Below, in pieces: positions 11,686 through 44,041 of a DNA stretch of 64,000 bases (positions within the stretch are counted from its first letter, which is position 1; every line of letters starts with the position of its first letter). The notes beneath the pieces are model-generated. The model was given only the letters and a program-made list of their open reading frames with translations, had not been told where the DNA came from and searched no databases. Position numbers and translations under genes: made by a program. This DNA is from Squalus acanthias (taxonomy: Eukaryota): the NCBI GenBank assembly GCA_030390025.1, contig JASTWF010000331.1:434001-498000 (forward strand), in the 5' to 3' direction.

Positions 11686-12256
11686 AACAATATAAAAAAA
11701 CAGAAGCTCACACGTTTCTTAGAAAGCCAACGTTCGAAAGAGCCAATTGACAATTAAAGAGTCTTAATTTCAATAAATCGTCATATTTATGATTTAATAT
11801 TCAAGGATTTCCTACAGTTTGAGAATTTTCTTATCATCAATACGTAAATAAATCTGATGATTTATTCTTTTAAAAAAATATCTCTAAACTGTATCTCATG
11901 TGCTGTAAAACGCAGCCCAGACCTGTCTGTCTCCCTATTGAGCAGATATCACTGTGGATGAGACACACAGATTGTTGCATGAAACGGTTGAAATGACGAA
12001 CACAAGAGCTCAGCTGAAAGTGAACAAAATAGCTGCCCTGCACGTGAAACACAAATGGCGCAGCAGACAATCAAAATAGAGACCTGACCTGAAACCCAAT
12101 TTCTAAACTGTCGCTGAATGAAATGTAGATATCGAGCGATTACTGCTGTAATTCAGGAGAGGGACATCTAGCGATTAATATTAGATTAGTGAACTGGAAA
12201 CCCTCTGTACCACCTCTGGCATTAGTTCATTTGTTTTTTATTAATTAATTTAATCA

Positions 12257-13134
12257 TCAGGATAAACGGATATTTAACGCGTTCTTGAACTGCTCTCTGA
12301 ACTTGGCATGAGTCTCCACGTAAATAAATGTGTTTGTGCAGGAACTTAAATTCTGCAGCATATATCCGACTTGTAGAAAAATAATTAATGAATTATTGTA
12401 ATACATGGAATTTGTTTCTGCAACGCTATAATATATGAATTCTGTAACATATGGCAACCACAAAAGGAGGAAGCTGCCGGAAATTGTGCAGAGTAAAATG
12501 ACGGACATCCTTCTGTTCTCCATCTCTGGGTCACTGCCATTCTCTGTCTTTCTCTGACCCCTCAGTCCCTCACGGACCCGACTGGCCACTAAAATGTGTC
12601 TGATTGACAAAGCGTTGAGCAGCAAAATTAAAGCGAATTGGAGCAATGTGGTTAAAATCGTATCAAACCAGTCAAATGCCATCCATTCGGGCTCAGTATA
12701 ATATCTTGCTTTTACAACACAAAACCACGGTACATTGTCGATGTTCTCCTCAGGATCATATATAAAGTACCAAGCAGTACTTTTCAAACTCAGCAGAATG
12801 CAGGTTGTTGCTATAACCACGGCCGCATTTTTCTTGGTGCAATATTTTGTTTTCAGCTTTTGGCAACAAATAGCAACAAAGCGATCAAAGGAGAAAGTGA
12901 CTGTTAACCAGACTGAACTGTCTCTGGATGCACGAGTCAGGACAGCGATAACACTGCATACAGGGGTGATCTTCAGAAAAGATCCTGGGTAAAGATAAGA
13001 ACAGATCCGAAAAAATATGAGCTCGTTGATAATGACCAGTAGATCCGTCACCACCATTCGCAGCAGGTAGCGAGTGATACATTCGGAGAGCCCGCACTTT
13101 GCTCTGGACAGGATCACAATCGCAATCAAGTTAA
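12257..13134 (-). CDS. GPR139/GPR142-like orphan class A GPCR, gene 1, exon 2 (possibly an incipient pseudogene)
   Basis: 7TM motifs 'NLIAIVIL', 'TDLLV', 'FDRFVAICC', 'LLWLPY', 'SCTNTFIY'. The acceptor (TTAGAG) aligns with that of gene 2, so the ORF-track N-terminus 13135-13273 is intronic. A 1-nt deletion at ~12277 truncates the C-tail. Confidence 0.88.
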
Positions 13135-13754
13135 CTCTAAGAGAGAGAAGGGAAATGAGACAGAAAATTACTGATAAGTCTCGACAGGGAATTCTACAAA
13201 CTGTTATTTGAGTGTAGCGACATTCCATGGTTCTCTCCCGAGTCCATAAACATGCACTGTGCGGCAGGGTCATTGCACAGAGATCAGAAGCGACAATCTG
13301 GGAGGATTTGTCCTTGCCATCCCAGAGCCGGTGAGGCTTCCTGTCCCATTCCTAAAGCCTTCTCGAGGCGATGGAGAGGTACTTATATGAAATTCAAAGC
13401 TTCAAACTTTCTGGAAGCATTCCAGGATGGAACTAGGCCTTACTACATGTGATAGCAGAGTTATGTCATTATAATATAAAAATCTACTAATGGTTGGCCA
13501 CTGGATGAACAAAAAACAATCAAATGAAACATAATAAGGGAGAGAGGAGTTCCAGCAGGAATGGCGAGTGTAGGAAAAGCAAGCAGTAAATTAGAAGTGG
13601 GGTTCACTGAATGAAGCAGCGGGGGAGGATGGAGGAAAACTCTCCGGGCTATGACGTCATGATGTCTGGCAGGTGAGATCCCATCCACAGTGAGTTTCAG
13701 AGGAGCATGAGTTTACTGGTCGTTGGACCAGAGCAGGGAGGCTGACATGTGTTG

Positions 13755-13870
13755 AAATATCAAATGTAAACAGAAAATGCTGGAATCACAAAACAGTTCA
13801 GGCATCATCTCAACGTCTGTGGAGAGAGGAATAGAATTAACTTTTTAGGTCCTTTGTCTTTCCTCAGAAT
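13755..13870 (-). mobile_element. Degenerate copy of the Penelope-pLTR-derived short element
   Basis: Reverse complement 'ctgaggaaagacaaaggacctaaaaagttaattctattcctctctccacag...ttccagcattttctgtt' resembles 171-296. Confidence 0.55.
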
Positions 13871-13889
13871 TAAACAAAGGCCTCCTCTA

Positions 13890-15690
13890 CACTGTGGAGA
13901 CCAAACATAGAAGAGGTTATCGCTCCTACCGAGCAGCAACCCCAATTGCCCCATCCTATTCTCGCCCCTGCAATTCCCACCCTCTGTACCTGCCTCTGAA
14001 TAATTTTGCCAACCACCTTCCCGCTCCTAACTTCGATCCCAACTCTGACCCTGTGGACTCTGCCATTCACTCGGCTATCATCGCCCCTCGCCCCATCTCC
14101 CTCCAAAATATACGTTCACTTGTGAATAAAGCCCTTGCCATCAACGAGCTTAATGTGGACGAGCACATTGATATCATGAACTTGACGGAGACATGGCTGA
14201 GGGGTGAGGACACCTTTCCCCTTAATGAAGCTTCACCGCCTGTCTATAACTGTCACCGCTTGCCCCGCTGAAAGCGTCGCGGTGGTGCTGTAGCCCTTAT
14301 CTCTAACGCACAATGTTGTGTGTCTCTTGAATACTCTGGCATCTTTTTCTCCTCAGAGCTACTTCTCTGCGTTCCTCCCTCAGCCTCTGCACTGGGGGTC
14401 TTGTGATCCACAGTGATTTCAACCTCCATCTCAACTCTTCTTGCTCTCTCTCCTCTGAGTCTACATCCCTCCTTTCGTCCCTAACCCTATCCCTCCGTAT
14501 AATCTCTCCTACTCGCTTGCACGGCCACACTCACCATCTTCTCATATCACATGGCCTCGCTACTCCCATAGTTATTAGCACTAATAAAGCAATCTCTGAT
14601 CATTTCCTTGGATCGCTCTTTAACAATATTCCTCTTACCCCTCCCAATCTCACTTCTTTCTGTGTCTGCCTCAGGAAAAAATATCTCCCTCAAGTCACTT
14701 ACCGCTACACTTTCAGATTCCCAACTATCCAGCCTTTGGACTGTCACTCACCAGGACATTTCTGCGGCAACTGATTTTCTAAATCACACACTCTCCATTA
14801 AAGTTAATGCACTTGTCCTCATTAGAACTATTACTTCTCTTACCGTAATCGTTCCCCCTTGTATACCCCTCACCTCCCATAAGTCCAAGAGATGCAGATT
14901 TGAACATCTTTGGGGAACAATTGGTTTAAATATCCATCACCAGATCTGGCTGGACCACTTAAAGCGTTATCGGGTCCTAATCGTTATCGCAAAAGTTGCT
15001 CACTTTCCAAAGATCATCCAGGACGGCAAAGATAATTAGCAGCTTCTCTTCTCCACCACAAACTGTCTTCATAAACCACCCTCCTTCAGCTCCTTCACCC
15101 GCAACACCAACAAAAAAGTCGGAGGAGTTCATGGACTTTTTTGTGCAATGGCAGAGACCATCCGTTCAGTTACCTTTCCCCCAACCCATCGGGACAAACT
15201 TCCCCACGTTTTCCTCGCTGTCCTAGCATTGAACTCACGTATTTCTCACGAATCAATCCCATCTCCTGCAATGCTCACTCCGATCTCATCTTCTTCCTGT
15301 GACCCACCTTCTGCTACCCCGATCCTATTCCGATCAAATTGTTGACAAGTGACCTTCCCTTCCTGGGTCCCATGTTCGCTGTTATTGTTAACGGTTCCCT
15401 CTCCTTAGGTACTGTCCCCGCCTTCATATCTGCTGTCATCAGCCCTCTCCTCAAAACAACTACGCTTGATCGGAATAGGATCGGGGGAGCAGAGGGTGGT
15501 TCTCAGGAACAAGATGAGTTCGGAGAGAGCATTGCAGGAGATGGGATTGATTCGTGAGAAATACGTGAGTTCAATGCTAGGACAGCGGAGAAAACGTGTC
15601 AATTTCTTTGTCTTATAACTCTCCCGTGAAGCGCCATGGGAAATTTTACTACGTTAAAGGCCCTATATAAATACACGTTATTGTTGTTTT
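13890..15690 (+). mobile_element. L2-like LINE (APE endonuclease region, internal rearrangement, 3' tail)
   Basis: 'LQNIRSLVNK...LTETWL', 'SDFNLH', 'PTRLHGHT', 'ISDHFL' are endonuclease motifs; L2 tail at ~15625-15690. Confidence 0.85.
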
Positions 15691-15694
15691 TATT

Positions 15695-16380: not shown

Positions 16381-16394
16381 ATTATTTAGTTATC

Positions 16395-17479: not shown

Positions 17480-19842
17480 GCAACTCAATCTAATAAAGCA
17501 CTCCAATCTAATACAGTACTTCAATCTAATAGAACAATTCAATCTAAAACAGCACTTCAATCTAATACAGCACTTCAATCTAATACAGTACTTCAATCTA
17601 ATAGAAAACTTCAATCTAAAACAGCACTTCAATCTAATACAGCACTTCAATATAATACAGCATTTCAATCTAATAGAACACTTCAATCTAAAACAGCACT
17701 TCAATCTAATACAGCAGTTCAATATAATACAGCACTTCAATCTAATACAGCACTTCAATAGAATACAGCACTTCAATCTAATACAGCAATTCAATCTAAT
17801 ACAGCACTTCAATCTAATACAGCAATTCAAACTAAAAGAGCACTAAAAACAAATAGAGCACTTCAATCTAATACAGCACTTCAATCTAATACAGCACTTC
17901 AACCTAATACAGCATTTCAATCTAATACAGCAATTCAATCTATTACAGCACTTCAATCTTATACAGCACTTCAATCTAATACAGCACTTCAATCTAATAC
18001 AGCACTTCAATCTAATACAGCAATTCAATCTAATACAGTACTTCAATCTAATACAGCACTTCAATCTGATACAGCACTTCAATCTAATATAGCACTTCAA
18101 TCTTATACAACACTTCAATCTAATACAGCACTTCAATCTAATACAGCACTTCAATCAAATACAGTACTTCAATCTAATACAGCAATTCAATCTAATACAG
18201 CACTTCAGTCTAATACAGAACTTCAATCTAATACAACACGTCAATCTAATACAGCACTTCAATCTAATACAGTACTTCAATTTCTATACAGCACATCAAT
18301 CTAATACAGCACTACAATCTAGTACAGCACTTCAATGTAAAACAGCAATTAAATCTAATACAGCACTTCAATCTAATACAGCACTTCAATCTAATACAGT
18401 ACTTCAATCTCATACAGCACTTCAATCTCATACAGCAATTCAATCTAATACAGTATTTCAATCTAATACAGCACTTCAATCTGATACCGCACTTCAATCT
18501 AATACAGCGCTTCAATCTTATACAGCACTTCAATCTTATACAGCAATTCAATCTAATACAGCAATTCAATTTAATACAGCATTTCAATCTAATACAGCAC
18601 TTCAATCTAATACAGCACTTCAATCTAATACAGCAATTCAATCTAATACAGTACTTCAATCTAATACAGCACTTCAATCTGATACAGCACTTCAATCTAA
18701 TATAGCACTTCAATCTTATACAACACTTCAATCTAATACAGCACTTCAATCTAATACAGCACTTCAATCAAATACAGTACTTCAATCTAATACAGCAATT
18801 CAATCTAATACAGCACTTCAGTCTAATACAGCACTTCAATCTAATACAACACTTCAGTCTAATACAGTACTTCAATCTAATACAGCACTTCAATCTCATA
18901 CAGCAATTCAATCTAATACAGTACTTCAATCTAATACAGCACTTCAATCTGATACCGCACTTCAATCTAATACAGCGCTTCAATCTTATACAGCACTTCA
19001 ATCTTATACAGCAATTCAATCTAAAATAGCAATTCAATCTAATACAGCAATTCAATCTAATACAGCACTTCAATCTAGTACAGCACTTCAATATAAAACA
19101 GCAATTCAATCTAATACAGCAATTCAATTTAATACAGCATTTCAATCTAATACAGCACTTCAATCTATTACAGCAATTCAATCTAATACAACACTTCAAT
19201 CTAATACAGCACTTCAATCTAATACAGCACTTCAATCTAATACAGTACTTCAATCTAATACAGCAATTCAATCTAATACAGCACTTCAATCTAATACAGC
19301 AATTCAATCTAATACAGTACTTCAATCTAATACAGCACTTCAATCTAATACAGCACTTCATTCTAAAGCAGCAATTCAATCTAATACAGCAATTCAATCT
19401 AATACAGTACTTCAATCTTATACAGCACTTCAATCTAATACAGCAATTCAATCTAATACAGTACTTCAATCTAATACAGCACTTCAATCTGAAACCGCAC
19501 TTCAATCTAATAAGCGCTTCAATCTTATACAGCACTTCAATCTTATACAGCAATTCAATCTAAAAGAGCAATTCAATCTAATACAGCAATTCAATCTAAT
19601 ACAGCACTTCAATCTGATACCGCACTTCAATCTAATACAGCGCTTCAATCTTATACAGCACTTCAATCTTATACAGCAATTCAATCTAATACAGCAATTC
19701 AATCTAATACAGCACTTCAATCTTATACAGCACTTCAATCTTATACAGCAATTCAATCTAATACAGCAATTCAATCTAATACAGCAATTCAATCTAATAC
19801 AGCACTTCAATCTAATACAGAACTTCAATCTAATACAGCAGG
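17480..19842. repeat. 18-bp satellite subfamily A (AATCTAATACAGCACTTC)n, ~130 copies, in the gene 1 intron
   Basis: Visible 18-nt periodicity; 6-aa periodic pseudo-ORFs. Confidence 0.97.
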
Positions 19843-19915: not shown

Positions 19916-19982
19916 CTGGAACACCAATGACTGCAAGGATGATGTAATATATGTTTCTGATGCTGTAAAATGTTGCCAACAT
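19916..19982 (-). CDS. GPR139-like GPCR gene 1, exon 1 (MLATFYSIRNIYYIILAVIGVP)
   Basis: 67 nt from ATG (19982) to donor CCAG|GTGAGT; a phase-1 join with exon 2 gives 'IGVPVNLIAIVIL' (TM1); same length as gene 2 exon 1. Confidence 0.9.
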
Positions 19983-20067: not shown

Positions 20068-20074
20068 ATTTATA
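20068..20074 (-). promoter_or_regulatory. TATA box of GPCR gene 1
   Basis: TATAAAT 92 nt upstream of the ATG, the same spacing as in gene 2; the 5'UTRs align. Confidence 0.75.
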
Positions 20075-20569
20075 CACTGTAGTTTGCCCACTGGGACAGT
20101 TGGGTAAAAACATCGTTTAAATTAGTTCTTGTTGTTGGAACAAATATTTGTTAACCGATTTGAGTCCCTCTTGTAGTGAAAGCCCCAAAGACTTGACAAT
20201 TTTGATAATATTCGGGAACTACTTTAAAAATTAACGCTGCAGTATGTTGTTTATTTTATCAAGATGTGGCTCATCAGTACATCTCACATTGCTTCCGTGA
20301 TGCTCTGCACCATACTGAGTTAATTGAAAATCCAATTTCAAATGTTTTCTTCCTATCTCGTCCCTGGTATGCGGTATTTCTGTTTTGGTTTAACTAAGTT
20401 AATTGGTGCACTTTCATTTTCAGATTAAATTACAGGGTTTGATTCTCTGTTCTTGAGAATTAAACAGTCATTACTGTTCTTACAAGGTTGTGCAATTTCA
20501 CAATAAATAATTATTGTATTCCTCCTATTGGAACACTCTGCAATAATACCCGTACATCTGTATTGCTCA

Positions 20570-20772
20570 AAGAAACACAGCCCATAAATCTAAAACAGCA
20601 CTTCAAACTAATTCAGTGCCTCAAACTAATTTTTCCCTTCAAACTAATTCAGCATCTGAAACTAATGCAGCATCTCAAACAAATGCAGCACATCAATGTA
20701 ATACAGCACCTCAGTATAATTCAGCACATCAAACTAACAAAGCTCCTCAAAACTAATTCAGCACCTCAAACT
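20570..20772. repeat. 18-bp repeat (AAACTAATNCAGCACCTC-like), ~11 degenerate copies
   Basis: Same family as 31245-38810 in the opposite orientation. Confidence 0.85.
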
Positions 20773-20774
20773 TG

Positions 20775-21625
20775 CAAAATGTGTACATAATTGTCAAATA
20801 TATTTCAGCACAGATCAGTGTGAGGTATTGAATTTTGTTAAGAAAAATAAGGAGTTCACATATTACTTGGAAAATAAGAATCTGAAGAGGATATTGTAGC
20901 AACGCGATTAGGGAGTTTAAATGTACAAATCACTTAAAGTAGAGACGCAGGTTAATAAATCATACAATGCAAACCTCGTGCTCGTGTTTATTACTAGAGG
21001 GATGGTATTGAAAAGTAAAGAAGCTATGCGAAACTTGTATCGAACCTTGGTTAGACCACACGCGGAGCATTATGTATACTTCTGTTCGCCATATTCGAAA
21101 AAAATATAGAGGCACTGGAAATGATGAAAAAAAAAGATTTACAAGGATGGTACCAGAAATGCGAGCTTATACCTATCAGGGTAGGAAAAACAGGCTTTGT
21201 CTCTTTACTCTTGAAAAGAGAAGGTTGAGGTGTGACCTAATTGAGGTCTTTAAAATTATGAACGTTTTTGATAGCGTAGATTCAGAGAGAGTGTTTCCAC
21301 TTGTGGGGAAGAGCAAAACTAGAGGCCTTAAATATAAGATAATTACCAAGAAATCAAATCGGGAATTCAGAAGGAGTTACTTTACCAAGCGAGTGTTGAG
21401 AATGTGGAACTCGCTGCAAGAGGGAGTTGTTGAGGAAAATAAAATAGAAGAATTTAAGGGGAGGCTAGATAAGCACCTGAGTGAGAAGCGAGTAGAGGGT
21501 TATGCTGATCGAGTTCGATAAGAAAGAATGGGAGGAGGCTCGAGTGGTCATATAAGCTGGAATGAATTGTTAGGCCAAGTGTCCTCTTTCTGGCTGTATG
21601 TTTCATGCAATTTTATGTGATCGTA
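20775..21625 (+). mobile_element. CR1-like LINE 3' fragment
   Basis: ORF 21072-21521 'EKRRLRCDLIEVFKIM...RMWNSL'. Confidence 0.88.
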
Positions 21626-21749
21626 GAATCATAGATTAATCCTTCACAGAAGTATTTGTGCTCCCAGATGTCTGAACTATTCTGTCCAATTTAGATTCTT
21701 ATTTTCAAAGTAATATATGACCTCCTTAATTTTCTGAACACAATGGAAG

Positions 21750-22690
21750 TGTCAGCCGTGGCTCAGTGGGTAGCACTCTCGGATCTGAGTCAGGAGGTAG
21801 TGGGTTTCACAGTCCCACCCCAGAGACTTGAGCACAGAAATCTAGGCCGGCAGTACAAAGCAAGCGCTGCACTGTCCGAGGTGCCGTCTTTCCGATGAGA
21901 TGTTAAGCTGAGACCCCGTCTGCTCTCTCAGGTGGAAGTAAAAATTCCCATGTCACTATTTTGAAGAGGAGCAGGAGTGTTATCCCCAGTGTTCTGGCCA
22001 ATATGTATCCCTCAATCAACGCGGGAATGGTAGCATAGTGGTTATGTTACTGTTCTAGTAATGCAGAGGCCTGGCCTAATAATCTGGAGACTTGAGTTCA
22101 AATCTCTCTTCATTAGTTGCGGAGTTTCAATTCAGTAAATTAAATAATTCGGGAATATAAAACCGAGTATCATTAATGGTCACCATGAAAGTAGCGGATT
22201 GTCGTAAAAATTCATCTGGTACCTAATGTCCATTGGAGAATGAAATCTGCCGTCCTTATCTGGTCTGGCCTATTTGTGACTCAACACCCACAGCAATGTG
22301 GTTGTCTCTAAACTGCCCCCTGAAATGGCCTAGCAAGACAATCAGTTGTACCAAACCGCAACGACAAAGTCAGCACTGTGTGCGAACCTTCAACAAACGA
22401 CTCCAGCGGTTCATAAGGCAGCTCACCACCACCTTCTCAAGGGCAAATAGGGATGGGCAATAACTACCGGCCTTGCCAGCGACGCCCACTCCCGTGAATG
22501 AATTAAAATACAAAAAAACAGTGTATCTGGGCATTAGCACATTGCTGTCTCTGGGAGCTTGCTGTGAGCAAATCGACTGCTGTATTTCCTACATTACAAC
22601 AGTGACTACACTTCACATGTACTTGATTGGCTGTGAATCGCTTTCGGGCTTCGTGGCAGGCGTTGTAAAAATGAAAATCTTTATTTCTTA
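21750..22690 (+). mobile_element. DeuSINE with nested tRNA-SINE (duplicate of 5597-6535)
   Basis: Same A/B boxes, same nesting junction after 'caatcaa'. Confidence 0.75.
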
Positions 22691-22694
22691 CAGA

Positions 22695-25003
22695 TGGAGA
22701 CCATTCGGCCCCTCGAGGCTACGTCTACTCTTTTGATGAGCCATCCTGTTATTCCCGATCCCTCACTCTTCCCCATATCCCTGTAATTATTCCCCTTCAA
22801 GCTTTTACTCAATTCCCTTTCGAATGCTACAATTGAATCTGTACCAACCACTCTATCAGGCCGTGAATTCCAAATCCTAACCACTCGCCATGTGAAAATG
22901 TTTTAGCTCATGTCGCCTCTGGTTCTTCTGCCAATCACCTTAAATCTGTGCCCTCTGGTTAGTGACCCTTCAAATATTGGAAACTGTTTCTCTTTATTTA
23001 CTCTGTCTAAATCATTAATGATTTTAAACACATCCATCAAATCTCTTTTTATTACTCTCTGCTCAAAGGAGAGTAACCCCAGCTTCTTCAATCTATCCAC
23101 GTAATTGCAATCCCTCACCCCTCGAATCATCATGGTAAATCTCTTCTGTACCCTCTGCAAACGCTTCACGTCCTTATTAAAGAGGGGTGACCAGAATGGG
23201 ACACAATATTCCAGCTGGGGCCGAACTGGAGTTTTTTGTAGGTTTAACATAACTTCCTGAATTTTGTACTCTGTGCCTCTATTTGTAAAGCCCAGGATCC
23301 TGTCTGCTTTATTAACTGCTTTGTTAACCTTTCCTGCCATCTTCAAAATCGTGTGCACAAAATCCCCCTGGTCTCTCTGTTCTTGCATCCAATTTATATT
23401 TGTAATATTTAGCTTGTGCTGTGCTTGCTCATTCTTCCGACCAAAATGTATCACCTCACAACTTTCTGCGTTGAATTTCATCCTCCACGTTCCCGCCCAT
23501 TGCACCAGCCTATCTAATTCCTCTTGAAGTCTATTACCAGCTGTCTCAGTGGTTACTGCACTTCCAAGTTTCGTGTCATCTGCACATTTGCCCGAAAATG
23601 TACCCTTTACCCAAAAGTCCAATCATTAATGTTTATCAAAGTAGCATTAGACTTTGCACGGAACCCCAGGGAACACCACGGTACAACTCACTCCAGTCCA
23701 AAAAAAACACCACAACTCTCTGTTTGTATCTATAAGCCAATTTTATATCCATGCTGCTACTGCCCCATTTATCAAATGGGCTTCAAAGTCCATATAGACA
23801 ATCCAAACTGCTCTGCCCTCATCCACCCTCTTTGTTAATTCAAGTAAACATTCGATCTCGTTAGGCAAACATGATATTCCCTTCAAAAATCAGTGCTTGC
23901 TCTCCGATCTTAGTCCAGACTAATCCAAGTGGATGTTAATTTTCACCCGGATTACTATTTCGAAAAGCTTCCGTACCACCGACATTAAACTGACTGGTCG
24001 GTAATTGCCAGGTTTTTCCTTCTAAGCATTTTTGAACAAGGGTGTAGAATTTGCAATCCTGCCGTCCTCAGCACCACCCTGTAGTTGAGGAGACTTGTAA
24101 TATATTGACCAGAACCTCCGCAATTTCTACCCTTACTTCCCTCAGCATCCTAGATTGCATCCCATCCGGACCGGGTGATGATCCACGTTAATTACCACCA
24201 GCCTTTCTAGAACCTCGTCGATATCTATGTTTTTTTATCACATCCAGTATCCCACCAAACTCCTCGTTTACCATAGCTTTGTCAAAGTCCCCTTCCTTGG
24301 TAAACACCGACAGAATGTATTAATTTACTCCTCAGCCATGCCCTCCGTCTTCACCAATATATCGTCATTTTGGTCTGTAATCGGTCGCACCGCCCCTCTG
24401 ACAAACCTTTTACTGTTAATATGCCTATAGGAGACCTTTGGATTCCTCTTTATGTTAGCGGCTAATCTATTCTCGTACTGTATCTTTGCCCATCTTATCT
24501 CCTTTTTCAACTCCCCTCTGAACTTTCTCTTTTCAGCCTGATTCTCCCTTGTATTATCAAGATGACATATGTCATACGCCCCCTTTTTCTGCTTCATCCT
24601 ACTCTTCAACTCCTTTACCATTCACGGAGCTCTGGCTTTGTTTGCCCTCCATTTCCACCTTGTAGGAATTACCTCGATGGTAACTGAACCATCTCCTCTT
24701 TAACTAACGCCCATTGCTTCATTACATTTTGTCTGCCAATCTTTGACTCCTATTCACCCGGGCCAAATCTCTCCTCAATTCGCTGAAGTTGGCGATCTTT
24801 AAGTTATCTATTTTTACTCTAGAATGTTCCATGTACTTCACCATAACTAATCTAAACCTTACGATACTATGATCACGATTCCCGAGATGCTCCCCCAGTG
24901 TGACATTCTCCACTTGACCCATTTCATTCCCAAAGACTAGATCCAGCAATGCCTTCTTCCTCATTGTGCAGGAAGCAAACTGATCTAGAAAGTTCTCCTG
25001 AAC
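22695..25003 (-). mobile_element. CR1-like LINE ORF2 (endonuclease end through RT and 3' end), degenerate
   Basis: ORFs 24722-24964 (LLDLVF..EHLGNRDHSIVRF), 24325-24621 and 22903-23622 (CADDTKL, RPQLEYCVPFWSP). Confidence 0.9.
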
Positions 25004-31244: not shown

Positions 31245-34200
31245 TGAAGGCCTGTATTGGCTTGATGAGCTACATTAGTTTGAGGGACTATTCTGGTTTT
31301 GAGTGCCTGTATAAGTTTGAAGAGCAGTATTAGATTGAGGGGCTGTATTAGTTTGAGGGGCTGTGTTAGCTTGAGGGGCTGCATTAGTTTGAGGTGCTGT
31401 ATTACTTTGAGAATGTGTATTAGTTTGAGGAGCTGTGTTAGTTTGAGGTGCTGCATTAGGTTCAGGGGCTGCATTAGTTACAGATGCTTTATTTGTTGGA
31501 GATGTTGTATTAATTTGAGTTGCTGTATTAGTTGGAGGGTCTGTAATAGTTTAACGTGCTGTATTAGTTTGATTAACATAGAAACATAGAAACATAGAAT
31601 CTAGGAGCAGGAGTAGGCCATTCGGCCCGTCGAGCCTGCTCCGCCATTCAATACGATCATGGCTGATCATCCAAATCCAGTACCCTGTCCCTGCTTTAAT
31701 CCCCACAGTACACATATCCCACCCTACCCCCGTAACCCCAAGTATTTAATTCCCCCTAACATATCCCATCCTATCCCCATAACCCCACATATTTAATCCC
31801 CCCTAACTCTAAGGGTCAATTTATCATAGCCAAATCAACCTAACCCACACATTTTTGGACTGTGGGAGGAAACCGGAGCACCCGGAGGAAACCCACGCAG
31901 ACACGGGGAGAATGTGCAAACTCCACACAGACAGTCACCCGAGGTCAGATTCGAACCCGGGTCTCTGGCGCTGTGAGGCACCAGTGCTAACCACTATGCC
32001 ACCGTGTTGCTGTATTAGTTTCGAATACTTTATTAGCTTGAGGGGCTTTATTAGTTTGAGTGTCTGTATATGTTTCGACTGCTTTATTAGTTTGAGCGGA
32101 TCTATTAGATTGTGGGACTTTACAGTTTGACTGGCTGTATTATTTTGAGGGCCTGTATTAATTTGAGGGGCTGTATTAGTTTGAGAGGCTGTATTAGTTT
32201 GAGAGGCGGTATTATTTTGAGGTGCTGAATATGTTTCGACTGCTTTTTTAGTTTTGAGCAGCCCTATTATTTTGTGCGGATGTATTAGTTTGAGGGGCTG
32301 TACTAGTTTGAGGGGCTGTAATGGTTTGAGAGGCAGCATTAGTTTGAGAGTTGTATTAGTTTGAGGGAATGTATTGGTTTGAGGGTCTGTATTAGTTTGA
32401 GGGGCTCTATTAGTTTGAGGGGCTGTATTAGTGTGAGTGTCTGTATCAGTTTAAGGTGCTGTATTAGTTTGAGGGTCTGTATTAGTTTGAGGGGCTGTAT
32501 TAGTTTGAGGTGCTGTATTAGTTTGAGGGGCTCTATTAGTTTGAGGTACTGTATTAGTTTGAGGTGCTCTACTAGTTTGAGGTACTGTATTAGTTTGAGG
32601 GGCTCTATTAGATTGAGGATCTGTATTAGTTTGTGGTGCAGTACTAGTTTGAGGGACTGAATTAGTTTGAGGGTCTGTATTAGTTTGAGGTGCTGTATTA
32701 GTTTGAGGGGCTGTATTAGTTTGAGGGGCTCTATTAGATTGAGGTGCCGTATTAGTTTGAGGGGCTGTATTAGTTTGAGGGTCTGTATTAGTTTGAGGAG
32801 CTGTATTAGTTTGAGGGGTGTATTAGTTTGATGTGCTTTACTAGTTTGAGGTGCTGTGCTAGTTTGAGGGATTGTATTAGTTTGAGGAGCTGTATTCGTT
32901 TGAGGGTCTGTATTAGTTTTAGGGGCTCTATTAGTTAAAGGTACTGTATTAGTTTGAGGGTCTGTATTAGTTTGAGGTACTGTATTAGTTTGAGGGTCTG
33001 TATTAGGTTGAGGGCCTGTGTTAGTTTGAGGGGTTTATTAGTTTAAGGGTCTGTATTAGTTTGAGGTGCTGTATTAGTTTGAGGGGCTCTATTCGTTTGA
33101 GGTACTGTATTAGTTTGAGGGGCTCTATTAGTTTGAGGTAATGTATTAGTTTGAGGGGCCGTATTTGTTTGAGGTGCTGTATTAGTTTGAGGGGCTCTAT
33201 TAGTTTGAGGGACTGTATTAGTTTGAGGGGCTCTATTAGATTGAGGATCTGTATTAGTTTGTGGTGCTATACTAGTTTGAGGGACTGTATTAGTTTTAGG
33301 GTCTGTATTAGTTTGAGGGGCTGTATTAGTTTGAGGTGCTGTACTAGTTTGAGGTGCTATACTAGTTTGAGGGATTGTATTAGATTGAGGGGCTGTTTGA
33401 GTTTGAGGGTCTGTATTAGTTTGAGGGTCTGTATTAGTTTGAGGTACTGTATTAGTTTGAGGGGCTGTATTAGTTTGAGGGGCTCTATTAGTTTGAGTTA
33501 CAGTATTAGTTAGAGGGCTCTATTAGTTTGAGGAACAGCATTAGCTGGAGGGACTGCATTAGGTTGAGGGGCTGTATTAGTTTGAGGGGCTCTATTAGTT
33601 GAGGTACTGTATCAGTTTGAGTGTCTGTATTAGTTTGAGGTACTGTATTAGTTTGAGGGGCTCTATTAGTTTGACGTACTGTATTAGTTTGAGGGCTCTA
33701 TTAGTTTGAGGTACTGTATTAGTTTGAGGAGCTCTATTAGATTGAGGTACTGTATTAGTTTGAGAAGCTCTATTAGTTTGAGGTACTGTATTAGTTTGAG
33801 GGGCTCTATTAGTTTGAGGTACTGTATTAGTTTGAGGGGGTCTATTAGATTGAGGATCTGTATTAGTTTGTGGTGCTGTACTAGTTTGAGGGACTGAATT
33901 AGTTTGAGGGTCTGTATTAGTTTGAAGTGCTGTATTTGTTTGAGGGTCTGTATTAGTTTGAGGGGCTCGATTAGATTGAGGTGCTGTAATAGTTCGAGGG
34001 CCTGTATAAGTTTGAAAGGTCTATATTAGTTTGAGGAGCTGTATTAGATTGAGCGGTGTATTAGTTTGAGGTGCTGTACTAGTTTGAGGTGCTGTGCTAG
34101 TTTGAGTTACTGTATTAGTTAGAGGGCTCTATTAGTTTGAGGAACTGCATTAGCTGGAGGGACTTTATTTGGTTGAGGTGCTGTATTAGTTCGAGGGGCT

Positions 34201-37200
34201 GTATTAGTTGAGGTACTGTATCAGTTTGAGTGTCTGTATTAATTTGAGGTTCTGTATTAGTTTGAGGTGCTGTATTAGTTTGAGGGGCCCTATTAGTTTG
34301 AGGTAATGTATTAGTTTGAGGGGCTGTATTAGTTTGAGGTACTGTATTAGTTTGAGGGGCTCTATTAGTTTGAGGTAATGTATCAGTTTGAGGGGATGTG
34401 TTAGATTGAGGTACTGTATTAGTTTGAGGGGCTCTATTAGTTTGAGGTAATGTATTAGTTTGAGGGGCTGTATTAGTTTGAGGTGCTGTATTAGTTTGAG
34501 GGACTCTATTAGTGTGAGGTAATGTATTAGTTTGAGGGGCTGTATTAGTTTGAGGTAATGTATTAGTTTGACGGTCTCTATTAGTTTGAGGTGCTGTATT
34601 AGTTTGAGGGGCTCTATTAGTTTGAGGTAATGTATTAGTTTGAGGGGATGTGTTAGATTGAGGTACTGTATTAGTTTGAGGGGCTCTATTAGTTTGAGGT
34701 AATGTATTAGTTTGAGGGGATGTGTTAGATTGAGGTACTGTATTAGTTTGAGGGGCTCTATTAGTTTGAGGTATTGCATTAGTTTGAGGGGCTGTATTAG
34801 TTTGAGGTACTGTATTAGTTTGAGCGTCTGTATTAGGTTGAGGGGCTGTATTAGTTTGTGGGGTGTATTAGTTTGAGGGTCTGTATTTGTTTGAGGTGCT
34901 GTATTAGTTTGAGGATTTGTTTTAGTTTGAGGGTCTGTATTAGTTTGAGGTGCTCTATTAGTTTGAGGTAATGTATTAGTTTGAGGGGCTCTATTAGATT
35001 GAGGATCTGTATTAGTTTGTGGTGCTATACTAGTTTGAGGGACTGTATTAGTTTTAGGGTCTGTATTAGTTTGAGGGGCTGTATTAGTTTGAGGGTCTGT
35101 ATTAGTTTGAGGTACTGTATTAGTTTGAGGGGCTGTATTAGTTTGAGGGGCTCTATTAGTTTGAGTTACTTTATTAGTCAGAGGGCTCTATTAGTTTGAG
35201 GATCTGCATTAGCTGGAGGGACTGTATTAGGTTGAGGGGCTGTATTAGTTTGAGGGGCTCTATTAGTTTGACGTACTGTATAAGTTTGAGGGCTCTATTA
35301 GTTTGAGGTACTGTATTAGTTTGAGGAGCTCTATTAGATTGAGGTACTGTATTAGTTTGTGAAGCTCTATTAGTTTGAGGTTCTGTATTTGTTTGAGTGG
35401 CTCTATTAGTTTGAGGTTCTGTATTAGTTTGAGTTGCTCTATTAGTTTGAGGTACTGTATTAGTTTGAGGGGGTCTATTAGATTGAGGATCTGTATTAGT
35501 TTGTGGTGCTGTACTAGTTTGAGGGACTGAATTAGTTTGAGGGTCTGTATTAGTTTGAAGTGCTGTATTAGTTTGAGGGGCTGTATTAGTTTGAGGGGCT
35601 CGATTAGATTGAGGTGCTGTATTAGTTCGAGGGCCTGTATTAGTTTGAGGGATTGTATTAGTTTGAGGAGCTGTATTCGTTTGAGGGTCTGTATTAGTTT
35701 TAGGGTCTCTACTATTTAGAGGTACTGTATTAGTTTGAGGGTCTGTATTAGTTTGAGGTACTGTATTAGTTTGAGGGTCTGTATTAGGTTGAGGGCCTGT
35801 GTTAGTTTGAGGGGTGTATTAGTTTGAGGGTCTGTATTAGTTTGAGGTGCTGTATTAGTTTGAGGGGCTCTATTAGTTTGAGGTACTGTATTAGTTTGAG
35901 GGGCTCTATTAGTTTGAGGTAATGTATTAGTTTGAGGGGCTGTATTAGTTTGAGGTACTGTATTAGTTTGAGGGGCTCTATTAGTTTGAGGTAATGTATT
36001 AGTTTGAGGGGATGTGATAGATTGAGGTACTGTATTAGTTTGAGGGGCTCTATTAGTTTGAGGTACTGTATTAGTTTGAGCGTCTGTATTAGGTTGAGGG
36101 TCTGTATTATTTTGAGGGGTGTATTAGTTTGAGGGTCTGTATTTGTTTGAGGTGCTCTATTAGTATGAAGTAATGTATTAGCTTGAGGGGCTCTATTAGA
36201 TTGAGGATCTGTATTCGTTTGTGGTGCTATACTAGTTTGAGGGACTGTATTTTTTGAGAGTCTGTATTAGTTTGAGGGTCTGTACTAGTTTGAGGGTCTG
36301 TATTAGTTTGAGGTACTGAATTAGTTTGAGGGGCTGTATTAGTTTGAGGGGCTCTATTAGTTTGAGGAACTGCATTAGCTGGAGGGACTTTATTAGGTTG
36401 AGGTGCTGTATTAGTTCGAGGGGCTGTATTAGGTTGAGGGCCTGTGTTAGTTTGAGGGGTGTATTAGTTTGAGGGTCTGTATTAGTTTGAGGTGCTGTAT
36501 TAGTTTGAGGGGCTCTATTAGTTTGAGGTACTGTATTAGTTTGAGGGGCTCTATTAGTTTGAGGTAATGTATTAGTTTGAGGGGCTGTATTAGTTTGAGG
36601 TACTGTATTAGTTTGAGGGGCTCTATTAGTTTGAGGTAATGTATTAGTTTGAGGGGATGTGATAGATTGAGGTACTGTATTAGTTTGAGGGGCTCTATTA
36701 GTTTGAGGTACTGTATTAGTTTGAGCGTCTGTATTAGGTTGAGGGTCTGTATTATTTTGAGGGGTGTATTAGTTTGAGGGTCTGTATTTGTTTGAGGTGC
36801 TCTATTAGTATGAAGTAATGTATTAGCTTGAGGGGCTCTATTAGATTGAGGATCTGTATTCGTTTGTGGTGCTATACTAGTTTGAGGGACTGTATTTTTT
36901 TGAGAGTCTGTATTAGTTTGAGGGTCTGTACTAGTTTGAGGGTCTGTATTAGTTTGAGGTACTGAATTAGTTTGAGGGGCTGTATTAGTTTGAGGGGCTC
37001 TATTAGTTTGAGGAACTGCATTAGCTGGAGGGACTTTATTAGGTTGAGGTGCTGTATTAGTTCGAGGGGCTGTATTCGTTGACGTACTGTATCAGTTTGA
37101 GTGTCTGTATTAATTTGAGGGGCTGTATTAGTTTGAGAGGCGGTATTATTTTGAGGTGCTGAATATGTTTCGACTGCTTTTTAAATTTTGAGCAGCCCTA

Positions 37201-38810
37201 TTATTTTGTTCGGAAGTATTAGTTTGAGGGGCTGTACTAGTTTGAGGGGCTGTAATGGTTTGAGAGGCAGCATTAGTTTGAGAGTTGTATTAGTTTGAGG
37301 GAATGTATTGGTTTGAGGGTCTGTATTAGTTTGAGGGGCTCTATTAGTTTGAGGGACTGTATTAGTGTGAGTGTCTGTATCAGTTTAAGGTGCTGTATTA
37401 GTTTGAGGGTCTGTATTAGTTTGAGGAGCTGTATTAGTTTGAGGGGCTGGATTAGTTTGAGGTGCTGTACTAGTTTAAAGTGCTGTACTAGTTTGAGGGA
37501 CTGTATTAGATTGAGGAGCTGTATTAGTTTGAGGGTCTGTATTAGTTTGAGGATCTGTATTAGTTTGAGGTACTGTATTAGTTTGAGGGGCTGTATTAGT
37601 TTGAGGGGCTCTATTAGTTTGAGGGGCTCTATTAGTTTGAGGTACTGTATTTGTTTGAGGGGCTCTATTAGTTTGAGGTACTGTATTAGTTTGAGGAGCT
37701 CTATTAGTTTGAGGTACTGTATTAGTTTGGGGGGCTCTATTAGTTTGAGGTACTGTATTAGTTTGAGGGGCTCTATTAGTTTGAGGTACTGTATTAGTTT
37801 GAGGGGCTCTATTAGATTGAGGATCTGTATTAGTTTGAGGGTGTGTATTAGTTTGAGGGGCTCTATTAGTTTGAGCTGTTGTATTAGTTTGAGGGGCTCT
37901 ATTAGTTTGAGGTACTGTATTAGTTTGAGGGGCTCTATTAGTTTGAGGTACTGTATTAGTTTGAGGGGCTCTATTAGTTTGAGCTACTGTATTAGTTTGA
38001 GGGGCTCTATTAGTTTGAGGTGTTGTATTAGTTTGAGGGGCTCTATTAGTTTGAGGTACTGTATTAGTTGGAGGGGCTCTATTAGATTGAGGTTCTGTAT
38101 TAGGTTGTGGTGCTGTACTAGTTTGAGGGAATCTATTAGTTTGCGGGTCTGTATTAGTTTGAGGTGCTGTATTAGTTTGAGGGTCTGTATTAATTTGAGG
38201 GTCAGTATTAGTTTGAGGTGCTGTATTAGTTTGTGGGGCTGTATTAGTTTGAGGTACTGTATTAGTTTGAGGGACTGTATTAGTTTGAGGTCTGTATTAG
38301 TTTGAGGGTCTGTATTATTTTGAGGTACTGTATTAGTTTGAGGGTCTGTATTAGTTTGAGGAGGTGTATAGTTTGAGGGGCTATATTAGTTTGAGTTGCT
38401 ATACTAGATTGAGGGACTGTATTAGTTTGAGGTGCTGCTTTAGTTTGAAAGTTTGTATTCGTTTGAGGAGCTGTGTTAGTTTGAGGATATGTATGAATTT
38501 ATGCTGCTGTATTAGTATCAAGCGCTGTATTAGTTTCGGGGCTGTATTGGTTTGAGGGGCTCTTTAGTTTGAGGGGATGTGTTAGTTTGAGGGGCTATGT
38601 TAGATGGAGGGGCTGTTTTATTTTGAAGAGCTTTATTAATTTGAGAGGCTGTAATAGTTTGAGGTGTTGCATTAGTTTCAGGGCCGGTATTACTTTGAGA
38701 TGCTGTATTAGTTTGCTGTGCTGCTTTAGTTTGGTTATTATTATTAGATGTAATATTTTCATGAGTTTGAGGGGATGCATTGATTTGAAGGGATGTATTA
38801 GTTTGAGAAC
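31245..38810. repeat. 18-bp satellite subfamily B (TGTATTAGTTTGAGGNNC)n, ~400 copies, with higher-order duplications
   Basis: Visible periodicity; degenerate at both edges; duplicated blocks inside. Confidence 0.97.
31575..32010 (-). mobile_element. Full-length HE1-type V-SINE
   Basis: tRNA head (TGGCATAGTGG A box, GGTTCGAATC B box), V-domain 'tgtgtggagtttgcacattctccccgtgtctgcgtgggtttcctccgggtgctccggtttcctccca', CR1-type tail (TTCTATG)n. Confidence 0.9.
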
Positions 38811-39231
38811 CCATCGAAAGAAGTTCTCCACTTTAAGTATTAAGCGAATGGCTGCAGTTAAACAGAGCACCCTCATCCCAGAGTGCAGAAGGAGCAGCCC
38901 TGGAAGGGCAATCAAACATTTTGATTTTATTTACTGAAAGGCCACAGCAGAGTGAAGGGCATTACTGGATCAAGATGTGATCTAGAGATGGGCCGGATGT
39001 TGTTTGACACAACAACACCATTGCTGGGAGAATACAGCTAGCAATCCCCATTAGGTATTAATTTGATCGGAATTCTCCAGTCTTTGGGGCTTTCAATTAC
39101 AAACTCAGCACTAAATATATTCCATCGCAAAAGGGACTTAACTCGGCTGTCGTCATTTGTTTGTTCAAATTTTTAAAAGAACTATTTTGAACGATGTTGC
39201 AACCTCAATGCCCCGTGGAGTTCCCGCAGGG

Positions 39232-39238
39232 TATAAAA
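39232..39238 (+). promoter_or_regulatory. TATA box of GPCR gene 2
   Basis: TATAAAA 92 nt upstream of ATG 39324. Confidence 0.78.
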
Positions 39239-39323: not shown

Positions 39324-39390
39324 ATGCATCTGCCAATACAACGTGTCACGCAATTATACTACTTGATACTTGCTGTCATTGGAGTTCCTG
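39324..39390 (+). CDS. GPR139-like GPCR gene 2, exon 1 (MHLPIQRVTQLYYLILAVIGVP)
   Basis: AAAATG start, 67 nt, donor CCTG|GTAAGT; joins exon 2 in frame. Confidence 0.92.
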
Positions 39391-39684: not shown

Positions 39685-42600
39685 GATTACTGGGAGTGTC
39701 CATCACTGTGGAACTGAACTGAGTGTGGGTCCCGAGCCGGAATGGGACACATAACTCCAGTGACCAAGTATTACTGGGACTATCTTTCACTGTAGAACTC
39801 TACTGAGTGTTGGACACTAAACGGAGTGGGACAATTGACACCAGTGGCTATGTATTAGTGGGAATATCTGTCGCTATAGAACTGTACTGAAAGTGGGTCA
39901 CTAACCGGAGTAAAACACTTGACGCCAGTAGCTATATATTACTGGGAATGTCTGTCACTGAAGAACTGTACTGAGTGTGGGGCACTAACCAGAGTGGAAC
40001 ACCTGACCCCAGTGACCATGTATTACTGGGAGTATCTTTCACTGTAGAACTGTTCTGGGTGTAGGTCACTAACTGGAGTGGAACACCTGACCCCAGTGGT
40101 CATGTATTACTGGGAGTGTCTGTCACTGTTGAAATGTACAATGTGTGGGTCACTAACCGGAGTGGAACATCTGACCCCATTTGACATGTATTACTGGCAG
40201 ATCTGCACTGTAGAATTATATTGAGTGTGGGGCACTAACCGGAGTGGGACACATGACACAAGTGGCCATGTTTAACTGGGAGAATCTGTTACTGTAGAAC
40301 TTTACTGAGTGTGGGTCATTAACCGGAGTGGAACACCTCACCCCAGTGGCCATGTATTACTGTGTGTAACTATCCCTGAAGAACTGTTCTGAGTGTGGGT
40401 CACTAACTGGCGTGGAACAAATGACCTCAGTGATTATATATTACTGGGAGTGTCTTTCACTGTAGAACTGTACTGAGTGTGGGTCAATAACTAGAGTGGA
40501 ACATCTGACCCCAGTGTACAGTTATTAATGGGAGTGTCTTTCAATGTAGAATTGTATTGAGTGTTGGTCACTAACAGGAGTGAAACAACTGACAGCTGTT
40601 GCCATGTATTATTGGGAGTATCTGTCACTGCAGAACTGTACTGAGTGGGTGTCACTAAGTGGAGTGGAACACCTGACCCCAGTGATCATGTATAACGTGG
40701 AGTATCTGTCACTGTAGAACTGTACTGAATGTGGGTCACTAAACAGAGTGGAACACCTGACGCAAGTGGTTACGTATTACTGGGAGTAGCTGGCACTGTA
40801 GAATTGTACTAAGAGTGGGGCACCAACAGGAATGAAACTCCTGACTCCAGTGGCCATATATTACTGCATTTATCTGTCACTCTAGAATTGTTCTGACTGT
40901 TGGTCTCTAACCGGAGTGGAACACTTCACCCCAGTGGCCATGTATTACTGGGAGTATCTGTCACTGTAGAACTGTACGGAGCGTGGGTCACTAACGGGAG
41001 TGGAATACCTCATCCCAGTGGCCATGTATTACTGGGAATTTCTGTCGCTCTAGAATTATATTGAGTGTGGTTCACTAACCTCAGTGGCCATGTATTACTG
41101 GGAGTATCTGTCACTGTAGAACTGAACTCAGTGTGGGTCCCTAACAAGAGTGGAATAACTGACCACAGTTTCCATGTATTGCGGGGAGCATCTGTCAATG
41201 TAGAATCGTACCAAGTGTGGGTCACTAAACAGCTTGGAACAACTACCCACAGTGTCCTTGTATTCCTGGGGGTATCTGTCACCTCAGAATTGTACTGAGA
41301 GTGGGTCACCTTCAGGAGTGGAAGACCTGACCACAGCCGCCATGTATTACTGGGTTTATCTGTCACTCCAGAATTGTACTGAGTGCTGGTCACATACTGG
41401 ATTGAAACACGTCACCACAGTGGCCCTGTATTACTTGGTGTATCTCTCAGTGTAGAACTGTACTGAGTGTGGGTCACTTAGCGGAGTGAAATTAACTGAC
41501 CCCAGTGACCATATATTAGTAGGAGTGTCTGCAACTGTAGAACTGAAATGAGTGTTGGCCACTAACCTGAGTGGAACACCTGACCCCGGTGGCCATGTAT
41601 TGCTGGGAGTGTCTGTCGCTGTAGAACTGTACTGAGTGTGGGTCACTAAATGGAGTGGCACACCTGACCCCAGTGACCATTTAATAGCAGGAGTGTCTTT
41701 CACTGTAGAATTGTACTGAGTGTGAGTCACTAACCGGAGTGGAACACCTGACCCCAGTGGCCATGTATTACTGAGAGTATCTATCACTGTAGAATTGTAC
41801 TGAGTGTGGTGAAACGGACCCCAGTGACCAAGTTACTGGGAGTATCTGTAAATAAATAACTTTACTGATTGTGGGTCCCTAACAAGAGTGGTGTAACTGA
41901 CCCCCGTAGCCATGTATAACTGGGAGTGTCTTTCACAGTAGAACTTTACTGAGTGTGGGTCACTAACTGAAGTACAACACCTGACCCTCGTGACCATGTT
42001 TTACTGGGAGTGTCTTTCACAGTAGAACTGTACTGAGTGTGGGTCACTAACTGAAGTACAACACCTGACACTCGTGACCATGTTTTACTGGGAGTATCTG
42101 TCACTGTAGAACAGTACTGAGTGTGGGTCACTACCCGGAGTGGAACACCTGACCCCAGTGACCATTTATTACTGGGAGTATCTGTCACTGTAGAACTGTA
42201 CTGTGTGTGGGTCACTACCCGGAGTGGAACAACTGACCCCAGTGACCATGTATTACTGGGAGTATCTGTCACTGTAGAACTGTACTGAGTGTGGGTCACT
42301 AACCGGAGTGGAACACCTGACCCCAGTGGCCATTTATTACTGGGAGTATCTGCCACTGTAGAACTGTACTGTGTGTGGGTCACTACCCGGAGTGGAACAC
42401 CTGACACCAGTGACCATGTATTACTGGGAGTATCAGTCACTGTAGAATTGTACTGAGTGTGGGTCACTAACCGGAGTAGAACACCTGACCCCAGTGGCCA
42501 TGTAATACTGGGAGTGTCTGTCACTGTAGAATTATATTGAGTGTTGGTCACTAATCCGAGTGGAACACTTGACCACAGTGACCATGTATTACCTGGATTA

Positions 42601-42975
42601 TCTGTCACTGTAGAATTGTACTGAGTGTGGGTCACTAACCGGAGTGGAACACCTGACCCCAGTGGCCATGTATTACTGGGATTATCAGTCACTGTAGAAT
42701 TGTACTGAGTGTGGGTCACTAACCGGAGTGGAACACCTGACCCCAGTGGCCATGTATTACTGGGATTATCAGTCACTGTAGAATTGTACTGAGTGTGGGT
42801 CACTAACCGGAGTAGAACATCTGACCCCATTGGCCATGTATTACTGAGAGTATCTGTCACTGTAGAATTATATTGAGTGAGGGTCACTAACCGGAGTAGA
42901 ACATCTGACCCCATTGACCATGTATTACTGGGAGTATCTGGCACTGTAGAATTATATTGAGTGTGGGTCACTAAC
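39685..42975. repeat. 84-bp minisatellite, ~39 copies, filling the gene 2 intron
   Basis: Unit GTATTACTGGGAGTATCTGTCACTGTAGAACTGTACTGAGTGTGGGTCACTAACCGGAGTGGAACACCTGACCCCAGTGGCCAT; 28-aa periodic pseudo-ORF. Confidence 0.97.
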
Positions 42976-43136
42976 TCTAATTGAACTAACAAGTTCTAAT
43001 TTGAAATCTTTGTGTCAGGTGACAAATCTCTTCCCTCCATGAATCGAGGAGAAATCCAGCCCTTACTATCTGGGCTCAGACACGAGGAATGTTTGATCAG
43101 TAATATCCTGTCTCCTTTGCCTTCTCTAATTTACAG

Positions 43137-44041
43137 TTAATTTAGTGGCGATTGTGATCCTATCCCGGGGAAAGTGCGGGCTCTCCACCTGCACCACTCG
43201 CTACCTGGTGGCCATGGCAGCGGCGGATCTACTCGTCATCATCACCGAGGTCATACTGAGGCGGATCAATTTGTATTATTTGCCAGAGTCTTTCTTGGAC
43301 ATCACTCCTGTGTGTAGTGTTATCGGGGTCATGGTTCGCGCAGCCACAGACTGTTCTGTCTGGTTCACCGTCACTTTCACCTTTGATCGATTTGTGGCCA
43401 TTTGTTGTCAGAAGCTGAAAACAAATTATTGCACCGGGAAAACTGCTGCTGTGGTTCTAGCAACAACCGGCACTCTGCTCTGTTTAAAAAGCATTCCCTT
43501 CTACTTTATATTTGAACCTGGTAAGATAATCGACAATGTACCCCGGTTTTGTTACACAATCCCAAGCTATTATACTAAGCCCGGATGGGTAGGATTTAGC
43601 TGGTTGGATAAGGGTTTAAACCCATTGCTCCCATTCGTTTTAATTTTGTTGCTCAACGCTCTGACAGTGAGACACATTTTAGTGGCCAGTCGAGTCCGTA
43701 AGGGACTGAGGGGTGAGAGCAAGGGAGAGAATCGCAGTGACCCAGAGATGGAGAGTAGAAGGAAGTCTGTGATTTTACTCTTCTCCATATCCGGCAGCTT
43801 CATACTTCTGTGGTTGGTATTTGTTATAGAATTCTTATATTATAGCATTGCAGCAATAGATAATTACAACGTGCCTTTGTATAATCTTCAACAAGTCGGA
43901 GCAATGTTGCAGAATATAAGTTGCTGCACAAACACATTTATTTATGGGGTGACCCAGTCCAAGTTCAGAGAGCAGTTGAAGAGCGCGGTGAAATATCCGG
44001 TTACCTCAATTATTCAATTAATGAAGAATCAGAACAACTGA
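43137..44041 (+). CDS. GPR139/GPR142-like orphan class A GPCR, gene 2, exon 2 (spliced product 323 aa, intact)
   Basis: Pyrimidine tract plus TTACAG acceptor at 43136; 'MAAADLL', 'FDRFVAICC', 'PLLPF', 'LLWL', 'CCTNTFIY', 'KFRE'; 67+905=972 nt. Confidence 0.93.

Follow-up and report, generated by a model that had tools for sequence, protein, structure and literature searches.

A GPR139-related receptor family present in thousands of copies in a Squalus acanthias genome, possibly a chemosensory-type repertoire

A 64,000-nt stretch of the Squalus acanthias genome (GCA_030390025.1, contig JASTWF010000331.1, positions 434,001 to 498,000 of the forward strand), here called the window and numbered from its first letter, carries two G protein-coupled receptor (GPCR) genes with 7tm_1 domains, arranged head to head and pointing away from each other. 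They belong to a family that is present in thousands of copies, is clustered on many contigs as a mixture of intact and broken genes, and has an origin separate from GPR139 and GPR142. The existence, size and selective pattern of this family are well supported. With somewhat better than even confidence, it is read here as a chemosensory-type receptor repertoire of independent origin, in which many pockets would be combined with one signalling face and one promoter programme. An earlier note on the window had supposed an expanded shark repertoire. This was borne out, with copy numbers far above its guess and well beyond the one to three copies genome-wide that would have spoken against it.

Members of the family are already listed by automated annotation. 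Added here are the whole-genome count, the separation from the true GPR139 and GPR142, the amphibian sister gene, the site-level selection and the shared promoter layout. No description of the expansion was found in full-text literature searches, subscription papers lying outside them. Term searches of the main texts of PMC11979771, PMC8455134, 10.1101/2025.02.19.638963 and PMC12294341 gave no relevant mention of GPR139, and none was found in the supplements searched (PMC8455134, PMC10115646, PMC10529500, PMC12361510, PMC13188829). In the whale-shark paper, cartilaginous fishes are said to show a "relative paucity" of GPCRs (PMC8455134). A GPCR family of thousands of copies, about half of them intact and with a diversifying pocket, contradicts this statement whatever its function.

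Copy number and kinship of the family

Copy number was estimated from exact sequence patterns. The pattern around the DRF motif gave 1,771 genomic matches (control 0), an 18-mer of intracellular loop (ICL) 3 gave 542 (control 0), a motif of transmembrane helix (TM) 7 gave 646 (control 2) and an exon-1/donor motif gave 484 (control 2). Of 72 inspected loci of the latter, 62 were accepted as exon 1. Protein searches of the same genome yielded 4,699 and 4,610 candidates, of which 131 and 134 were scored; all 131 from the first search were near full length with at least 77% identity. By-eye comparison found the DRF pattern at 10 of the 21 places listed for the ICL3 18-mer and at 13 of the 18 listed for the TM7 motif. 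Among loci selected through the 18-mer, 14 of 26 carried it (four loci chosen for lacking DRF were excluded), as did 5 of 10 loci selected for likeness to GPR139. Of 50 loci selected through DRF, 5 had the one and 10 the other of the two further exon-2 motifs. These overlap ratios suggest about 2,450–5,400 copies, with four of six estimates at 3,200–3,700.

An exon 2 was scored as intact if the acceptor was present, at least 285 codons were open and the alignment formed one block. This held for 28/50 DRF-picked and 11/26 18-mer-picked loci, which were taken from the first 100 listed places and not at random, and were judged on exon 2 with exon 1 not linked. The intact fraction therefore implies roughly 1,000 intact genes among the motif-positive copies alone. 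The mixture of intact and broken copies agrees with the birth-and-death turnover that the earlier note had proposed. Clusters were located on the large contigs C1, C3, C5, C6, C7, C12, C17, C18, C21, C26, C29 and C30 and on many small contigs. Family motifs also matched at the extreme starts of large contigs (C11:6566, C16:6615, C23:6434, C25:47968, C18:30911), suggesting a subtelomeric spread.

In protein databases, 2,681 clusters matched at E ≤ 1e-5, and the 120 listed all came from sharks or rays. Nearly all of these 120 were named "probable/putative GPR139" (RefSeq label "probable GPR139"), so that automated annotation lists members under a misleading name. Among 30 representatives looked up of 150 listed, one from the chimaera Callorhinchus milii was 56% identical. 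This value lies inside the family's own spread (median pairwise identity of 58% among 81 intact copies), and the family therefore appears to be older than the chimaera-shark split.

The true GPR139 of the genome was found separately. A 9-residue GPR139 motif gave a single match, in gene L061, whose identity is 96% to GPR139 of a ray, 95% to that of a shark and 87–90% to tetrapod GPR139. A second gene, L143, at 57%, groups with GPR142 and is likewise a separate single copy. The two genes lie on C18 and C24. GPR139, GPR142 and the expanded family share a phase-1 intron at the same position in TM1 which, together with the nearest named human relative, places the family in the wider GPR139/GPR142 group.

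Phylogenies were computed as quick trees, with support from the Shimodaira-Hasegawa-like approximate likelihood-ratio test (SH-aLRT) only. In a tree of 45 rows the family was monophyletic (96), sister to an amphibian clade (99) and apart from GPR139/142 (100), and another low-copy clade of fishes, amphibians, reptiles and sharks stood beside the family and the amphibian clade. In an initial tree, amphibians were represented by just two rows, which sat on a long branch and shared an unresolved fork with the family. The family is thus its own clade; it is neither nested inside the GPR139 or GPR142 clade nor a low-copy gene in a genome lacking another orthologue. Orthology to GPR139 or GPR142 was rejected, one-to-one orthology included, because the clade is separate, the true orthologues lie elsewhere in the genome and the agonist residues are not kept. 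Of the GPR139-like kinship claimed earlier, relationship to the group stands and orthology does not: the family belongs beside GPR139/142, with a sister lineage that is apparently single-copy in amphibians.

At least two more unnamed low-copy clades of GPR139-like paralogues were seen (P0237, P0424, P0484, P0491, P0255). One of them spans sharks, fishes, amphibians and reptiles, with R6.51 kept and W6.48 lacking. The unnamed low-copy fish and amphibian relatives are probably among the GPR210A/GPR210B sets, these being candidate names. In the accessible part of Rinne et al. 2019 (PMC6504862), GPR210A/B are among three sets named in coelacanth and fishes, and shark data are absent (0 occurrences of "shark").

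Receptor structure and selection on sites

Seven TM helices and helix 8 were recognised from Pfam 7tm_1 and a homologue model. The AlphaFold model of P0003, a full-length homologue of 81% identity, had a predicted local distance difference test score of 85.9 and seven helices, with TM1 starting at residue 2 and a predicted hairpin in extracellular loop (ECL) 2. In Foldseek searches with this model, peptide receptors and GPR139 ranked first with near-equal scores. Class A hallmarks were kept in the 81 aligned copies (N1.50 in 79, D2.50 in 81, D in 81 and R3.50 in 79, the TM3 and ECL2 cysteines in 76 and 78, Y7.53 in 81), with position 7.50 being T in 67 and P in 11. DRF and NTFIY, which the earlier note had read in the window genes, were found there. 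According to the accessible parts of two agonist-site papers, the agonist residues of GPR139 are F3.33, H5.43, W6.48, R6.51 and N7.38 (PMC5430874; PMC8807744). These residues occurred in 9, 23, 74, at most 3 and at most 4 of the 81 copies, respectively, the last two values being ceilings for residues outside the six commonest at their positions.

The modelled fold bears on the possibility that the receptors serve endogenous or reproductive recognition, of peptide- or pheromone-type signals or of gamete or tissue identity. Its predicted closeness to peptide receptors and GPR139, with an ECL2 hairpin, would suit such a role, and Srw-type families are among the atlas neighbours. It is, however, difficult to see which set of endogenous ligands would call for thousands of copies with hypervariable pockets, and this role is regarded as quite improbable.

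Between the two window genes, exon-2 proteins are 65% identical. Intracellular loops are kept (ICL1 6/9, ICL2 11/13, ICL3 20/25), whereas extracellular loops have diverged (ECL1 6/11, ECL2 13/26, ECL3 4/10), as had been noted before. Judging by the conserved loops, G-protein coupling may be fixed.

For the analysis of selection, 81 intact exon 2s were aligned, after 22 of 103 had been dropped at ≥97% identity to a kept copy; many of the 81 are near relatives of the window genes. A custom grid codon model without a recombination term was used. The limits of the regions and the list of pocket positions were drawn up from residue numbers once the entropy table had been seen. Selection was not uniform. 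The ratio beta/alpha was 0.85 in the outer and 0.36 in the inner half, with 0.31–0.47 in intracellular and 0.91–1.08 in extracellular loops, and purifying selection was found at 164/300 sites, including the inner half. Ten sites had a posterior >0.9 for beta>alpha, and these were confined to the outer half (10/112 outer vs 0/173 inner, Fisher p 7e-5). They comprise 2.65, 3.29, 45.51, 45.52, 6.51, 6.54, 7.39 and three other loop sites, and seven of the ten fall among 30 pocket positions. In 12 null simulations, 0–2 such sites were obtained and twice the log-likelihood difference was at most 9.1, compared with 32.8 observed. With the caveats on boundaries and model, these data support diversifying selection at pocket-facing positions.

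Alternatively, copy number could be mostly passive, with repeat-driven segmental duplication and gene conversion multiplying a few functional genes and homogenisation accounting for the conserved inner face. Oriented minisatellites do flank the cassette, whole blocks are duplicated at 95–98% identity, copies lie at contig ends (C11, C16 and C23 near 6.5 kb) and the synonymous rate is lower in the inner loops. This explanation is nevertheless given little credence, since purifying selection acts on more than half of the sites, median pairwise identity among the 81 intact copies is just 58%, subfamilies are common to sharks and rays, and promoter elements are kept while flanking DNA diverges.

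Promoter layout and possible function

Promoters were compared at 62 exon-1 loci in 10 sequence groups, and the TATA-anchored analysis was performed on 9 groups with 50 loci. A forkhead-like site, TAAT and an Ebf-like palindrome stood at fixed spacing from TATA in at least half of the members of 5, 4 and 6 of the 9 groups, respectively, compared with a background per window of 7%, 6.5% and 1.8%. With caveats given below, this supports a forkhead/homeodomain/Ebf-like/TATA layout kept across divergent subfamilies. For the mouse, most odorant-receptor promoters are predicted to carry sites for Lhx2 and Ebf (PMC5608512).

In the window's subfamily, 23/30 promoters carried an oriented 18-nt minisatellite, mostly ending 500–700 nt ahead of the ATG. 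In the remaining nine promoter groups, no such array appeared within 833 nt. The unit contains TAAT, and the array sits upstream of subfamily promoters and fills the minus-gene intron as well (loci L154–L223). As to its nature, a hitch-hiking substrate for recombination and a homeodomain multimer are both conceivable.

In the proposed history, the ancestor would have been a receptor of single copy, a state apparently retained in amphibians, and the fixed pocket seen in the GPR139-like relatives may then have been lost. Tandem and segmental duplication would have multiplied the gene before the chimaera-shark split, followed by birth-and-death evolution. Different copies might then respond to different small molecules or short peptides from the water or the mucosa, peptides being proposed because the predicted ECL2 hairpin resembles that of peptide receptors. 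All of them would couple to one common G protein and, within one cell type, use a shared signalling route. This cell type would most likely be sensory neurons or chemosensory cells, perhaps with few receptors chosen per cell.

Contigs guessed to be RNA, from four (X1, X2, X3 and X8) of 18 listed runs that bear coded labels, none of them on record as RNA and the tissue unlabelled, covered exon 2 with 41, 27, 16 and 138 contigs. Their depth jumps at the acceptor, and one contig starts at 43138 with 68 unmatched letters ahead; paralogue introns diverge too, which makes this a weak hint.

The same contigs and turnover would also fit an immune repertoire, that is, GPCRs of leukocytes or barrier epithelia sensing microbial or parasite products like a hugely expanded formyl-peptide or MRGPR-type family. 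Fast turnover, with about half of the copies broken, and pocket diversification suit host-pathogen pressure equally well, and the Ebf-like and forkhead-like sites would fit B-lineage cells. On the other hand, the 62 proximal promoters showed no enrichment of ETS, RUNX, IRF or octamer motifs. A loose NF-kB count was raised there (35 vs 17), probably by overlap with the Ebf-like site. The family was also not mentioned in one supplement, of 4,750 characters, of a nurse-shark spleen single-nucleus paper, which is a weak indication. An immune role is considered rather unlikely; if true, it would mean a large unrecognised innate receptor system.

Several points weigh against the chemosensory repertoire that is preferred here. 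The synonymous rate was higher in the outer half too (~1.8 vs ~1.0), and gene conversion or model misfit, which lie outside the null simulation, may therefore contribute to the outer-half signal. Promoter windows were set post hoc from the alignment, the copies share ancestry and the factors are named by likeness to consensus motifs; without position anchoring, TAAT was not enriched (27/62, compared with 21.6 after shuffling). Ebf and forkhead factors act in B cells too. Unplaced contigs may hold allelic duplicates that inflate the counts, the window block having a 95–98% counterpart on C30. In the accessible part of PMC10116579, knowledge of olfactory tissue concerns four known families, and that of a catshark study shows no GPCR among the top 50 brain-plus-olfactory genes (PMC11979771).

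More specifically, and only tentatively, the family could be a fifth, independently evolved vertebrate chemoreceptor family. Cartilaginous fishes would then possess at least 1,000 working genes derived from a GPR139-related orphan that is single-copy in amphibians, with an odorant receptor (OR)-like homeodomain/Ebf promoter and TAAT minisatellites possibly tuning gene choice. In size, such a family would rival the odorant-receptor repertoires of the best-endowed mammals. If the receptors are sensory, the old puzzle of why the olfactory repertoire of sharks is so small becomes directly testable, and a fifth family would explain good shark smell although only a few dozen olfactory receptor genes are counted in each species of cartilaginous fish (PMC10116579).

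The window loci and known receptor systems

The two window genes have the identical layout described before: a coding exon 1 of 67 nt, a phase-1 intron in TM1, TATA at -92 from the ATG and alignable flanks, with 71% DNA identity in both the 5' and the 3' regions. One copy is intact and one is decaying, as the earlier note had recognised. The intact class A gene on the plus strand has an open frame of 323 residues in two exons. Its exon 1 (39324..39390) encodes the start of TM1, and the coding part of exon 2 (43137..44041; 7tm_1 E 2e-20) the rest of TM1 to the stop. They are separated by a GT-AG intron of 3,746 nt. The proximal promoter (39158..39237, plus strand) contains a forkhead-like site at 39158–39165, an Ebf-like site at 39210–39220 and TATA at 39232, factor names being those of consensus motifs. 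Repeat analysis showed that an 84-nt tandem array (39686..42975) fills the intron. Its motif was found at 13/60 exon-2 and 11/70 exon-1 loci of the family, and a lone short array of the same unit at 25086–25361 is possibly the relic of another cassette. An 18-nt minisatellite array (32031..38733, plus strand) ends ~590 nt upstream of the ATG at 39324.

The minus-strand paralogue starts with the ATG at 19982. Exon 1 (19916..19982, 67 nt, TATA at 20074) is followed by an intron of 6,781 nt and by exon 2 from 13134 (12257..13134), with the ancestral-frame stop at 12224–12222. Its acceptor is GAG, and a competing AG 2 nt upstream would give a 25-residue product, whereas the acceptor is CAG in 28/29 nearest relatives (the 29th is 5'-truncated). 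A 1-nt deletion near the C-terminus stops the frame at 314 residues. Counted over the codons on which its four nearest relatives are unanimous, the gene has 11 private amino-acid changes, the loss of P5.50 included, vs 0 silent ones. A count of the same kind in its closest relative, L034, gave 8 replacement vs 0 silent changes. Repeat analysis placed 18-nt arrays of minus orientation within the intron (17485..19840) and, as a short array, upstream of the promoter (20596..20772).

A truncated third gene cassette, also claimed earlier, was rejected. The segment 4164..7964 is a non-coding duplicate, at 74–81% identity, of 20189–24067 upstream of the minus gene, corresponding only to the region more than ~200 nt upstream of the ATG. 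It contains neither TATA or promoter core nor exon 1 or exon 2. A tblastn search of 60 kb on the left side of this segment gave no exon 2. In ~38 kb to the right, a third, frameshifted exon 2 was found on the minus strand ~2–3 kb past the window end (L230:2133–3046, C2573), tail to tail with the plus gene. The head-to-head pair recurs at C30:8.16–8.22 Mb with 95–98% DNA identity, non-coding third cassette included, and at C2317:257–331 kb with 92–95%; each is either a segmental duplication or a divergent haplotype.

At 55968–57848 and 60556–61783 lie two reverse-transcriptase open reading frames of retroelement type, 88% identical and with a weak RVT_1 match, whose C-terminus we take to be GIY-YIG/Penelope-like. 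The first is flanked by an inverted repeat of 286 nt and 99% identity (55688–55973, 57989–58274). Further inverted repeats at 15205–15598 (133 nt, 93%) and 28375–28556/31681–31861 (182 nt, 97%) are probably non-autonomous transposon ends or recent inversions.

Among known systems, GPR139 and GPR142 (PDB 7VUG) are the best PDB sequence match (E 8e-10) and rank second by fold. The TM1 intron position is shared and W6.48 is kept in the family, with P7.50 usually absent. In contrast, identity is only 26–33%, the clade is separate, the true orthologues are single copy, and R6.51, E3.32 and N7.38 are not kept, these positions being hypervariable in the family. Both GPR139 and GPR142 count as class A orphans, with L-Trp and L-Phe as activators. 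The amphibian sister clade (e.g. P0235 Pleurodeles, P0458 Xenopus) has the DPE motif of ICL3, with basic residues after it, in common with the family, but has apparently one gene per species and an invariant pocket. This apparently single-copy gene offers a handle in Xenopus or axolotl on the ancestral ligand and cell type.

By sequence the family does not belong to OR, TAAR, V1R or V2R, as both window copies matched only 7tm_1 in Pfam and have their nearest relatives in the GPR139 group. Cartilaginous fishes have only 6–13 OR, 3–5 TAAR, 2–4 V1R and 8–43 V2R genes in the accessible part of PMC10116579. The shark family differs from these receptors in its GPCR lineage and in its coding intron within TM1. 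It resembles them as a large, clustered birth-and-death family with pseudogenes, as found in chemoreceptor repertoires, with a very short N-terminus, a variable pocket and a compact TATA promoter with homeodomain- and Ebf-like sites.

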